From positions 320,001 to 384,000 of the forward strand of contig CAVUDW010000002.1 of assembly GCA_963740355.1 (NCBI GenBank): DNA of 64,000 nucleotides. The letters are read 5' to 3'. Both the position numbers and the translations under genes were made by a program. Source of the stretch: an uncultured Gemmatimonadaceae bacterium. GTDB taxonomy: Bacteria > Gemmatimonadota > Gemmatimonadetes > Gemmatimonadales > Gemmatimonadaceae. Every line of letters starts with the position of its first letter. Within the stretch, counting starts at the first letter, position 1. This document shows, in pieces, positions 1-3,830 of this stretch. The notes under the pieces are model-generated. The model did not search any database. It had not been told where the DNA came from and saw nothing but the letters and a program-made list of their open reading frames with translations.

Positions 1-162
1 CGTGCCCGTCGCTTCCAGCACGACCAAGGTCGGCGGCTGCGCGGTGAGCGCGGTGACGAAGGCGTCGATGTCCGCCGCCGTATTGCGGAGCTGCGTCACC
101 GCACCGTCGTGGACCGCCACATCCAAGTGGGCCTTGCTGACATCAATGCCGAGATACGTCAT
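1..162 (-). CDS. IS110-family DEDD recombinase/transposase, N-terminus (runs off the left edge)
   Basis: Manual translation from ATG 162: MTYLGIDVSKAHLDVAVH...LVVLEATGT, carrying the GIDxxK and EATG motifs of the IS110 RuvC-like domain; GGAGG RBS upstream. Not in the ORF track. Confidence 0.92.
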   Translation of the reverse strand, partial: MTYLGIDVSKAHLDVAVHDGAVTQLRNTAADIDAFVTALTAQPPTLVVLEATGT

Positions 163-184
163 ACTGCCTCCAGGTGACGACCGC

Positions 185-330
185 GCGCGCCCTGCCTTGC
201 GAGATGCGGGATCGCGTCGGCGTCCCTGGTAGCTGTCCGGGCTTGTAGCGATCGGGACGACGGCGCTCTGACTCTGCGACGGGCTCACGGCGCCCGGGGC
301 GCTCCGAACGAGCTGCCGCCGTCCCGGAGA
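185..330 (-). ncRNA. Putative bridge RNA (target-binding and donor-binding loops)
   Basis: Two stem/internal-loop/hairpin modules: stems 254-264/315-325 and 189-192/239-242, inner hairpins 281-295 and 208-226. Loop strands match the flanking target and the element end. Confidence 0.65.
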
Positions 331-566
331 TTTAGCTTCTGTGCGAGGAGACATACAAGGCGCAGAGACGCAGAGAACTGCAAGGGCAAGACAACGGCGC
401 TGGTAACAGCAACAGCAACAGCAACAGCCACGGCAAGGGCCAGGGCAACTGCCTTGACGCAGAACAGAAAACTGCGGTACTGCACCAGCCGCAGAACTGC
501 ACAGCCGCAGAACTGCGCGCGTGTCTAGTCCTAAATAATGTCTACACAGGGTGCAGGCGGTCTGGG

Positions 567-1438
567 TTAGGCCGCCTGGTGAAACACGGCGTGCGGGGTT
601 TGGAGCGCGAGACTCCAGTGCGTGCGGACGGTGTTGTAGATCGTGACCGCGTGGGTGACCGCCGCGCGCGCGTCGGCCAGCGAGGGGAAGACGGCATCGA
701 GGTCGAATTCATCTTTCAGGATGCCGTTCACGCGTTCGGCGACCGCATTCTGATAGCAGTGGGCGCCGTCCGTCGTGCTCGGGAGCATGCGATGGGCGTG
801 CAGCTGCTGGACGTACGCGTGGCAGCAATACTGACTGCCGCGATCCGAGTGGTGCACGATGCCCTGACAGTCACCCAGCGTCTGCTGCGCGGCCGCGAGC
901 GCCTGCAGCGCGCCCTGCGGCGAGAGATCGGTGCGAAGATGCCAGCCGACGATGTGGCGCGCGTACAGGTCGGTGACGAGAAACAGGTACGCAAACGCGC
1001 CGTGCTCGAGCCGCAGGTACGTGATGTCGCTCACGACGACCTGGCGCGCGCCGGTGACGGTGAGCGTCTTGAGGCGATTGGGCGCCACGACGTAGGGATG
1101 GTGCGCATACGTCGTCTGCGTGGCGCGGCGCTTCCGGGCCACGAGGCGCCCCGTGGTGCGGAGCACCGTGAACAGGCGGTCCCGCCCCACGGTCACCCCT
1201 GCGGTCGTGAGGGCGTCGTGCAGCTTCCGCGTCCCGACGCGCGGCTGGACGCGGCGGAGGGCATCGACCTGCGCGATCACCGCGGCGTCCGGGTCGGTGT
1301 CTGCGTCGCTCCCGCGGCGCTGTCGCTTGTAGTAGGCGTCGCGGGTGCAGCCGAGCGTGCGGCAGACGCCGGCGACGGTGTGCGCGGTGTCGGCCGGGGC
1401 GCAGAGGACGGCAGCGGCGGCGTACCAAAGTTTTTTTT
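567..1438 (-). CDS. IS3 transposase OrfB (rve/DDE integrase core), reached by -1 frameshift
   Basis: VVSDITY, HHSDRGSQY and NAVAERVNGILKDE motifs; the frame stays open back to the A8 run and gives the typical VAGVCRTLGCTRDAYY start. Confidence 0.93.
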
Positions 1439-1741
1439 GATGTCGATCTTGTAGTGTTTGTTCGCCTGGGTGATCAGCTCGTCGAACACCTGCAGCTTGA
1501 GATGCGCCTCGGCCAGGGCCTTCTCCAACGCCGCAATCCGATCCTGCTCGCTCTTCATGACCACCTCCACGATGTCGCGTTTCGGCTGGAACCGGCCGTA
1601 CTCCCGCAGCCAGGTCTGCACCATGGCCACGGTGGTCTGCGCATCCCGCGCGGCTTCGCGCATCGACAGATGCCCGCCCTCAATCTCCTCGACGAGCCGC
1701 TGCTTCAAGTCCGGACTGTACTGGTGAAACGATCGGGCCAT
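1277..1741 (-). CDS. IS3 transposase OrfA (HTH)
   Basis: YSPDLKQRLV...W.R.Y HTH followed by a coiled coil (RIAALEKALAE); slippery AAAAAAAAC at ~1430-1438. Confidence 0.9.
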   Translation of the reverse strand: MARSFHQYSPDLKQRLVEEIEGGHLSMREAARDAQTTVAMVQTWLREYGRFQPKRDIVEVVMKSEQDRIAALEKALAEAHLKLQVFDELITQANKHYKIDIKKNFGTPPLPSSAPRPTPRTPSPASAARSAAPATPTTSDSAAGATQTPTRTPR

Positions 1742-2039
1742 GGGTCTACGTCTCCAACGGCGGGGGACGTGTAGACGCTAATCAGGACGTGACACGCGGT
1801 CGTTGAGTGGACGTGCTGAACTTTTTTGGGAACAGCACGCTCACTGTTCCTCCGCTTCCAATGCCGTTCCCAAAGCCGTGCAGTTGCGGTTCCTCTGCGC
1901 CTCTGCGTCTCTGCGTTTTGCAATGGCAGTTGAGCAGTTGCCGTTCTGCGGCCGTGCAGTTCTGCGGCCGTCGCTGTATCGCTGTCTTCTGTTCTGCGTT
2001 GAGGCAGTTGCTGTTGCGGTTGCCGTCGTAGCTGAGCCG

Positions 2040-3830
2040 TCAGCCGACCTCGATCAGCAGTGTCCCGACAGGTGTGCGCGTGAAGCGGTGGGCCATCAAC
2101 CAGGCGACGGCAAGCGTCAGCGACGAGAGCGCGGCTGCGGTGGTGATGACGATGGCGCGGTCGTAGCTCGGGGCGCCAGGGATGATGCGCGGGAGCACGT
2201 CCCAGAAGATCTGGCCCAGCCAGGCGCCGAAGAGCGAGCCGCCGAGTGCGACAAGTCCGGCGCGCCCGAGCACGAGGGCATGGATGGCGCGACGGCTGGC
2301 TCCGACCGCGCGGCGGATGCCAAGCTCGCGCTGTTGTGAGTCGAGCCAGAGGCGAAGCATCGCAATCAGGCCGCCAACCGCGATCAGCGCCGTCACGACA
2401 CCCATCGCGAACAGCAGGTTGGTGAACCACTGCAGCACCGAGGTGTCGGCGGCGCGACGCGCTGCGATGCTGGTCGCAGTGCCGCGAACGGTGCCAATGC
2501 TGCGCAACACATCGGTCGCCAACGGCTTGTCGGCCGTTCCGACTTCGATCAGGCCCACCGGTTGCTGCAACACGCTCACGTAGACGCCCAGCTTCGGTTG
2601 CATCACGGCGCCAAGGCCGAGCGCCTCGCCATCGCTCACGATCCCCACCACCTCAAACCACTGGTTGTTCAACACCGTCAGCTGAACCCGCTTGCCGACC
2701 GCATCGCCATTCGGGAACATCGCCTGTGCAAAACTCGCATTCACGACCGCGACCAGTGGGCTGTCCCAGCGGTCGCCGTCCGTGAGCAGACGCCCTGCCT
2801 GCAGGCGCAGTCCGCCGAGCGCAAAGCTGTCTCCGCTGACGGCAAAATGAGCCACCGTTTCCGTACTGCCGCGCAGGATCGCGACCGTACCACACCGCTT
2901 GCCGCAATCGCTGCTGGCTTGCGCGATGGTGCCGAGGCCGCGGTGCACGCCGCTCGAGCCGAGGCTGATCAGCGCTGACGGGTTGACCGCATGCTGCTCC
3001 GCGAGGAATGCAGCGAAGCGCTTGGCCCGCGCCAATCGATCGGTACCCTCGGCGCGCAGTTCCTGAACCAGTGTCGTGGACGTGGCCAGCTGGGCCACAT
3101 CATTCCGTTGCGTCGTCGTGAGCTCGCGCAGCGTGGCGCCGCCCGCGAGCACCACCACTGCGGCACCCAACTGAAGTGCCGGGATGATGAGCGTCAGCGG
3201 TCGGCGATCATCATCAACCAATCGCGTGGTGCTGAGTGCCCGAATGAGCAGCAATGGGGCCACCATCACCAACGCCGTCACACCCAGTGTGCCCGCGACA
3301 CTCAACACACGATCTGCCGGTGCCACGCTGCCAGGCCACGCCGCGCGCATCACCACGACCGCGAATAGCGCGAGCAGCATCCCGACAAACAGCGCGACGC
3401 CTGCCAGCGCCCCGGACTCCAGCACCATCGCGCCGAAAACATCCCGACGCGACGCTCCGATCGACCGCACCACGATCACTTCGCTGCTGCGCGCTGCCGT
3501 GCGCGCGAGATGCAGCGCGAGCAGCGTCGCCGCGCCCACGGCGAGAGTCATCACCGTCGCGCCACGCACGACTGACAGCAACTTCAGGATGGCGAGCTGC
3601 TGCAGCTGCGGCCAGACCACGCCGCGCCCGCCCCAGTCGGCCAGCAGAGCTCCCGTATCGCCAAGTGCGATCGTCAATGAAGGCGCCGCCGTGGTGCCGC
3701 CAAGAATCGTCAGCGCTGGCAGGGCCCCCGCCAACGTGAGGGCCGCGGCCAGTGCCACCAGCGCGCCAGTGCCAGCGTGCCACCGAAGGGCGAGCAGCGC
3801 GGCACTGCGTTGGGCGATGCGAGAGCTCAT
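2040..3830 (-). CDS. MacB/FtsX-like ABC transporter permease
   Basis: Two R..E..IR.A.GAS FtsX motifs, a periplasmic core (GRLLTDGD, VAVVN.SFA, EVVGIV) and multiple TM helices. Confidence 0.85.
   Translation of the reverse strand: MSSRIAQRSAALLALRWHAGTGALVALAAALTLAGALPALTILGGTTAAPSLTIALGDTGALLADWGGRGVVWPQLQQLAILKLLSVVRGATVMTLAVGAATLLALHLARTAARSSEVIVVRSIGASRRDVFGAMVLESGALAGVALFVGMLLALFAVVVMRAAWPGSVAPADRVLSVAGTLGVTALVMVAPLLLIRALSTTRLVDDDRRPLTLIIPALQLGAAVVVLAGGATLRELTTTQRNDVAQLATSTTLVQELRAEGTDRLARAKRFAAFLAEQHAVNPSALISLGSSGVHRGLGTIAQASSDCGKRCGTVAILRGSTETVAHFAVSGDSFALGGLRLQAGRLLTDGDRWDSPLVAVVNASFAQAMFPNGDAVGKRVQLTVLNNQWFEVVGIVSDGEALGLGAVMQPKLGVYVSVLQQPVGLIEVGTADKPLATDVLRSIGTVRGTATSIAARRAADTSVLQWFTNLLFAMGVVTALIAVGGLIAMLRLWLDSQQRELGIRRAVGASRRAIHALVLGRAGLVALGGSLFGAWLGQIFWDVLPRIIPGAPSYDRAIVITTAAALSSLTLAVAWLMAHRFTRTPVGTLLIEVG

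Follow-up and report, generated by a model that had tools for sequence, protein, structure and literature searches.

A predicted IS621-type bridge RNA in an IS110-family element inserted in a genus-specific intergenic repeat of a Gemmatimonadaceae bacterium

Introduction

The insertion sequence IS621 and its bridge RNA have been described by Durrant et al. 2024 (PMC11208160) and Hiraizumi et al. 2024 (PMC11208158). As set out in these papers, the left guides of the RNA have the top-strand sequence, and each right guide reads as the reverse complement of the core plus the right arm; the rule for the handshake bases is taken from the account of Hiraizumi et al. (PMC11208158). REP-targeting IS110 elements are also described from Pseudomonas, namely ISPpu10, ISPpu9 and ISPa11 (Tobes & Pareja 2006, PMC1525189).

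In the IS110 family, the consensus RNA has a 5' stem-loop, and the promoter is reconstituted in the element's circular form, with none expected in the integrated state. The donor of IS621 is ACAGTAT-CT-TGTAT.

A preliminary description of the present locus, made from its letters, had proposed an IS110 bridge RNA aimed at the lineage's own repeat. Here we followed up this proposal by comparing the copies of the element, their flanks and homologous loci. We conclude, with a probability of roughly 0.93, that the locus forms the left end of an IS110-group insertion sequence that is active or was so until recently, and whose 197-nt leader is predicted to encode a bispecific IS621-type bridge RNA. 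By every test applied at the sequence level, the element is a member of the IS110 group of bridge recombinases, a kind of system that is already known and is comparable to IS621 with REP and ISPpu10 with REP. Transcription of the RNA, its binding to the protein and the recombination chemistry are what we infer from the sequence.

Results

An IS110-family recombinase at the edge of the window

The window, the whole 64,000-nt stretch of DNA that was analysed, is G000:C2:320001-384000, where G000 is the genome and C2 the contig. The left end of the IS110-family element occupies positions 1-359 on the minus strand, out of a total of 1148 bp. The first 54 codons of the recombinase lie at 1..162 (minus strand), with the ATG at 162-160, and the ORF exits the window's left edge; in the genome, the full protein has 311 aa and is followed by a 17-nt tail. 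Pfam identified an N-terminal RuvC-like DEDD domain (PF01548, 1.3e-26) with four acidic residues and a C-terminal Tnp domain (PF02371, 2.1e-15) with the conserved Ser-Gly. The protein also scored above the cut-off of 140 with the NCBIfam model NF033542, 'IS110 family RNA-guided transposase' (211 bits), and aligned over its whole length to ISCro4 (9t56, 1.2e-35) and IS621 (8wt6, 5.8e-33). In this alignment, D7, E50, D92, D95 and S230-G231 correspond to D11, E60, D102, D105 and S241-G242 of IS621, numbered as in PMC11208158. The acidic residues fall on the IS621 motifs GID, EATGTY and TDxVDA, and S230-G231 falls on ESG. The recombinase therefore shares its architecture and catalytic residues with that of IS621, whereas the similarity is at HMM level only and the lengths differ (311 vs 326 aa).

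BLAST of the element against the genome returned seven copies. Five of them are identical over 1150 nt, one carries 21 substitutions and one 44, and the ORFs are open in all seven at 97-100% identity. At 97% identity or more, the element was present in G000 alone among 41 genomes, and the next best match had 53%. All seven copies lie on the minus strand of their own contigs. A strand bias relative to replication was considered and rejected, two copies running one way and five the other. GC skew is positive along the whole of C2 and negative along the whole of C3, and these two 2.55-Mb contigs therefore look like one chromosome's two opposite replichores. An eighth, different IS110-family gene is found at G000:C3:1718792-1719271 (+), with 78.7 bits to PF01548.

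Junctions, an empty site and a candidate circle promoter

The preliminary description had staked its reading on further copies sharing one kind of site, and all seven do: their left junction reads ...GCGC-CT-TGTATGTC, their right one ...ACAGCTA-CT-CTGCG. The window-side junction reads TCTGCGC-CT|TGTATG at 352-366, as had been described. The core dinucleotide CT (358..359, minus strand) is the sole dinucleotide common to both junctions in the seven copies. The far end, left of the window in the genome, reads ...CAACACAGCTA-CT-CTGCGTTAAAG. It had been predicted as ...GCTAC-CT followed by CTGCG, and the real CAGCTA-CT-CTGCG comes close: the CTGCG half was borne out, and the extra C is absent. Taken together, the junctions of the seven copies give ...CTCTGCGC-CT-CTGCG(T/A)T as the target and ACAGCTA-CT-TGTATG as the donor (the circle junction), which is nearly identical to the donor of IS621. 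The flanks diverge past ~20 nt, indicating separate insertions.

Scarless insertion was seen at one site. A contig of the metagenome run X2 (161 nt, depth 3.1; one side is repeat DNA) connects the left flank with the unique right-hand one, with exactly 1148 nt absent and 2 letters common at the joint. This contig is the empty allele in a relative, and the skip fixes the length of the element at 1148 bp.

In the integrated state, we found no sigma-70-like site upstream on the minus strand. When the two ends were joined in silico, the circle junction contained TTGACT-17 nt-TATGTC, in which the candidate -35 overlaps the stop codon and the candidate -10 box TATGTC (355-350) overlaps the right donor. 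TTGAC[A/C/T]-17-TATCTT was present at the same positions in 8 of 20 homologs, a count that is likely low since further cases were cut off by the extraction window. As far as motifs can tell, the gap in the integrated state and the junction motifs together fit a reconstituted promoter.

That five copies are identical over 1150 nt, that all seven ORFs are open with the catalytic residues kept and that a relative has an empty site argue against a relic, in which the loops would mirror past insertions of an element that no longer transposes in this genome. We regard such a relic as unlikely. It would agree with the null result for a circle junction in the contigs of X1, X2, X3 and X10, which as contigs cannot show rare forms, and with the lack of a promoter-like site upstream of the integrated element; the latter, however, is what is expected for the IS110 family.

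The leader is predicted to fold into two loop modules

The leader (LE) that would encode the bridge RNA has 197 nt and lies at 163..359 on the minus strand (359->163). The minus-strand fold of two stem/internal-loop/hairpin modules given in the preliminary description was reproduced, with an MFE of -91.8 kcal/mol (z = -2.36 vs shuffles). A scan of one genome per species yielded 80 loci with homologs at 37-60% identity, and nearly all of their leaders start CT|TGTAT. We aligned the own leader with those of 27 non-gammaproteobacterial loci (MAFFT/RNAalifold), and the consensus of these 28 leaders has the same two-module architecture. By eye, the same layout is recognisable in the gammaproteobacterial homologs (~25 loci), which enter none of the counts.

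In the consensus, module 1 consists of a 13-bp closing stem and an apical hairpin, and module 2 of a 3-bp outer stem and an apical hairpin. The closing stem of the target loop (helix 1) is formed by 310..325 (5' half) and 254..268 (3' half, from the 28-leader consensus), both on the minus strand; 10 of its 13 pairs have compensatory changes, and 95.9% of cells are paired. The apical hairpin of this loop, GGGC GCCGUGA GCCC, lies at 281..295 (helix 2) and that of the donor loop at 208..226 (helix 4), again on the minus strand. Over the whole consensus, compensatory changes were found in 16 of the 23 counted pairs, and 93.8% of cells were paired, compared with 79.9% in shuffles (0/500 reach the observed value) and 40-46% with slid partners. 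These data point to a two-module ncRNA in the left end, and the element resembles IS621 in the left-end position of its RNA, in the two internal-loop modules and in the core CT.

The leader appears to be constrained, being invariant in six of the seven copies. Of the 21 and 44 substitutions in the two diverged copies, 0 and 1, respectively, fall within it (binomial 0.019 and 0.0026), and the sole substitution lies in the apical part of the donor-loop hairpin, equivalent to window position 218. An Rfam 15 scan of window 1-2400 (E<=10) returned three chance-level matches, none on the leader. Ahead of the target loop, where only ~33 nt are available, the MFE fold gives no convincing 5' stem-loop, a difference from IS621.

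Guides and handshake bases match target and donor

In the target loop (all features of this section are on the minus strand), the left target guide lies in the window GGAGCGCCC (297..305), whose GCGCC (302-298) equals the left target GCGC plus the core C. The right target guide CGCAGAG (272..278) is the reverse complement of the core CT plus the right target CTGCG. The loop thus matches GCGC-CT-CTGCG in all seven copies. The base of the left guide opposite the core T is C, and only 5 contiguous bases pair, rather than 9 in IS621, which pairs both core bases according to its published description; the right guide has 7 nt, compared with 4 in wild-type IS621.

In the donor loop, the left donor guide ACAGCUAC (229..236) equals the right-end ACAGCTA plus the core C. 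The right donor guide strand GCAUCUC-GCAAG (196..207) contains the guide proper, GCAAG (200-196), in which CAAG pairs with CT-TG and the preceding 5' G makes a G·T pair with the next T. The donor loop therefore matches the RE-LE junction on both sides. The right donor TGTATG (357-352, within 350..357) occurs as TGTAT[G/C] in all 28 aligned homologs. Both guides resemble those of IS621 as described in PMC11208158, where the left donor guide A123-C130 likewise equals the left donor plus the first core base and where C162-G165 of the right donor guide pair with DNA next to G161·dT12.

The handshake guide of the target loop is UC (270..271), and its U (271) pairs with the last base of the left donor (A7). 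That of the donor loop is GC (194..195), which pairs with the last two bases of the left target (G6C7); a G handshake base pairing with target C7 is also described for IS621 (PMC11208158). Neither handshake guide pairs with its own, cognate DNA.

The four strings named in the preliminary description, GCGCC, CGCAGAG, GCAAGG and CAGCTACC, are indeed the reverse complements of 298-302, 272-278, 195-200 and 228-235, respectively, and some of the roles given to them needed adjustment. CAGCTACC was rightly placed in the left strand of module 2, and its last C is unpaired. Where CAGCTAC had been read, the final C pairs with the core C; the left donor is ACAGCTA plus the core. GCAAGG was said to pair with the element end; it does so through CAAG and the 5' G (as G·T), and its 3' G is a handshake base, not part of the donor guide.

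Guides track flanks across homologs

Right ends were located for 20 of the 28 elements. In seven loci (L008, L042, L060, L065, L072, L075 and L078), a search up to 500 nt from the stop codon gave no right end, and at L051 the contig stops within the right flank; the counts for right target, left donor and target-loop handshake exclude these eight loci. Over 19 non-redundant elements, the 5 nt of the right target guide next to AG were compared with the right flank of the same element. On average, 4.89 of the 5 positions matched, compared with 1.80 for non-cognate pairs, and 0 of 20,000 permutations reached the observed sum. Similarly, the run of the left target guide ending at the core C had a mean of 5.06, compared with 2.54 in non-cognate pairs (0/20,000 permutations). 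The own run of 5 is therefore typical. Contiguous matches of ~5 nt for the left and 7 nt for the right target guide are the norm among homologs, which answers the earlier worry that the guides were short. These permutations also bear out the loop-target covariation among homologs that the preliminary description had called for and, with the loops matching both target and donor, its central proposal.

In 18 of 20 homologs, the 7-nt left donor guide and the left donor are identical; there is one mismatch in the other two, and the left donor variants ACAGCTA, ACAGTTG, ACAGTCG and ACAGATG are each matched by the guide. The handshake base of the target loop pairs with donor position 7 in all 21 homologs with a known left donor, and in 27 of 28 homologs that of the donor loop pairs with position 7 of the target; only L008, with its atypical left junction, departs from this. 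Cognate pairing, which is forbidden by the handshake rule, was found in 0 of 21 and 1 of 28, respectively. Informative changes include G-C, A-T (L007) and U-A (L011).

The closest relative overall is represented by three loci of a Gemmatimonadaceae MAG (L001-L003, 60% aa identity), with an identical right target guide strand, UCGCAGAG, and an identical left donor guide, ACAGCUAC. Their flanks, ...CTCTGTGTC-CT-CTGCGG, ...CTGCGGC-CT-CTGCGG and ...TCGCGAC-CT-CTGTGG, are of the CTCTG(C/T)G type. In contrast to the element described here, their left target guide GUGGCC fits GYGRC-C partly by wobble, and the host genome is another. Guides and flanks are different in the homologs L086-L094 of related genomes (47-53% identity), and the octamer is not among their targets.

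Four Dehalococcoidia loci (L040, L041, L044 and L047) carry tandem 18-nt repeats of the ATGACCACTGGGACA type in variable number at the 5' end of the recombinase gene, just after the annotated start, so that the N-terminal extensions of copies within a single genome are of unequal length.

The target is a tandem octamer of an intergenic repeat

Each of the seven copies is inserted in ...CTCTGCGC-CT-CTGCG..., which is a tandem octamer belonging to an intergenic repeat specific to the genus. In the window, the left flank (360..540, minus strand) starts with the left target CTCTGCGC (reverse complement of 360-367) and continues into an arm of the composite repeat with GCAGTT/CTGCG arrays. An uninterrupted paralogous target, CTCTGCGC-CT-CTGCG (CTCTGCGCCTCTGCG), lies at 1893..1907 on the plus strand in the opposite arm of the same repeat locus, at the place where it had been reported before. 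This locus sits between the 3' ends of convergent ORFs. As in IS621, the natural target is an intergenic repeat; here, however, it is a tandem octamer in a Gemmatimonadaceae-type genome and not the REP of E. coli.

CTGCGCCTCTGCG occurs 14 times in the genome against 0.77 expected, three times directly upstream of an element copy. Tandem CTCTGCG-N-CTCTGCG has 45 occurrences, of which 29 have T at N, 13 have C and 3 have A; the guided site arises only from the C form. In an internal-octamer variant of the target, GCGC-CT-CTGCG is followed by TCTCTGCG. The octamer blocks end with a small hairpin, CTGC(G)-loop-(C)GCAG, and are often arranged as inverted pairs around the palindrome CTTTGGGAAC...GTTCCCAAAG with A/T tracts, flanked by GCAGTT/CTGCGG arrays. 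There are ~33 GCAGTT arrays in the genome. Beyond G000, the tandem octamer was found in 13 of 19 genomes of the same genus and in 2 of 21 genomes of other genera, in a search whose reversed-pattern control was also non-zero in rich genomes.

The 'dispersed repeat' of the preliminary description takes the form of a tandem (C/T)CTCTGCG octamer block beside a small hairpin, within a larger composite repeat that, over the genomes searched, is restricted to this genus. Compared with REP, it has small hairpins CTGC(G)-N-(C)GCAG, and its copies number tens, not hundreds. A REP/RAYT relationship was tried and rejected. The two PF01797 (Y1 transposase) genes have 1.5-kb flanks without GCAGTT arrays or octamer tandems, and the repeat is therefore not called REP.

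The composite repeat was observed at window 1810-2030, C3:2517500-2518100, C3:1345900-1346180 and C3:2454640-2454930. Here the central palindrome CTTTGGGAAC-N-GTTCCCAAAG often has A- and T-tracts in the manner of a two-way terminator, and is flanked by inverted (CGCAGAG)n/(CTCTGCG)n blocks and outer GCAGTT/CTGCGG word arrays. A GCAACA/GCTGTT hexamer run lies at window 387-425 (plus strand), inside the repeat arm that adjoins the IS110 copy. An IS3-family element with two ORFs overlapping at a T-run (518..1795, minus strand; NF033516, 3.2e-58) stands outside the bridge system. It has five copies, the others being C2:13910-15244, C2:152029-153307, C3:603058-604331 and C3:1515717-1516995. Every one of them is in or beside a GCAGTT/CTCTGCG repeat locus, one of them separated by only 5 nt from an IS110 copy's left end, indicating that the repeat attracts a second, unrelated insertion sequence.

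A hairpin at six of seven occupied sites

The guides specify ~11 bp (GCGC-CT-CTGCG), and 29 such sites in the genome are empty. The right target is the first arm of a CTGC-N3-8-GCAG hairpin at six of the seven occupied sites, compared with 5 of the 29 empty ones (Fisher 0.0014) and 2 of the 10 empty ones with the full CTCTGCGC (0.015), in a comparison that was made post hoc and with small numbers. We tentatively suggest that site choice may need a DNA-structure gate besides the 11-12 bp read by the RNA, although we consider such a gate doubtful. If it operates, insertion would take place only where the right target CTGC(G) is the 5' arm of the hairpin, i.e. at the last octamer of a block, and junctions with the same 11-mer core one unit further in would stay empty.

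This arrangement can be compared with that of ISPpu10, all copies of which, as described for the Pseudomonas elements, lie in one conserved intergenic repeat with a stem-loop adjoining the target. The stem-loop of ISPpu10 is described as a GC-rich 5' extension of the target, whereas the hairpin here is on the 3' side with its first arm being the right target, and its effect here is a post hoc count only.

A stronger version, in which protein or DNA structure mainly picks the sites and the RNA loops add little, appears very improbable to us. The hairpin counts would suit it, as would the 8 nt common to all seven left flanks (CTCTGCGC), which exceed the 5 that the left guide explains, and a preprint on ISPpu10 (10.64898/2026.03.19.712850) reports, in its own terms, a structural determinant in the target. 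Such a mode of selection is at odds with guides that track flanks across homologs with unrelated targets, and IS621 is described as reprogrammable via its loops alone (PMC11208160).

Discussion

We propose that the predicted RNA is a natural bispecific guide of the IS621 type. That the leader is instead an ordinary 5' UTR whose 5-8-nt flank matches are coincidence in a GC-rich genome can hardly be maintained, because, even with GCGCC being common (GCGCCT occurs 7802 times in the genome and GCGCC three times within the leader) and a fold z-score of only -2.36, four independent guide segments stand at the positions predicted by the IS621 architecture, the far end was predicted before it was seen, and the permutation, handshake and covariation tests contradict it.

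With the bridge RNA reading, the cycle of the element might run as follows. The element would excise as a circle whose RE-LE junction, ACAGCTA-CT-TGTATG, brings the -35 to 17 nt from the -10, and the RNA would be transcribed. Its donor loop would then hold the RE-LE junction and its target loop the genomic GCGC-CT-CTGCG, where GCGCC would pair with the bottom strand, and CGCAGAG with the top one. The handshake bases would come into play once the top strands are exchanged, each then pairing with the non-cognate DNA: U with donor A7, GC with target G6C7. Two copies of the octamer CCTCTGCG side by side, which is one of the modules of the composite repeat, would make up the site specified in this way. 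Being built from octamers of an intergenic repeat, such a site would let the element land in repeat DNA between genes.

The locus would represent a natural bridge-RNA system far from E. coli in which all four guides and both handshake positions are readable from the sequence, and the guides are checkable against seven insertions, 29 unused sites and one empty allele. It adds another IS110 element that appears to use a genus-specific intergenic repeat as a safe landing site and involves no new principle. The hairpin gate, if true, would be a 3'-side counterpart of the stem-loop 'dual-match' proposed for ISPpu10, and would explain how a 5-nt left guide is tolerated without off-target insertion at other 11-mer sites. 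For the engineering of bridge recombinases, the compactness of the protein (311 aa) and the possible need for a hairpin could be of interest. For the family, the comparison confirms at the level of sequence that distant homologs obey the rules of IS621, down to the pairing of the handshake bases and the end of the left donor guide at the first core base. Natural variation is seen as well, in that the left target guide has 5 nt, the right one has 7 nt and the core T is unpaired.
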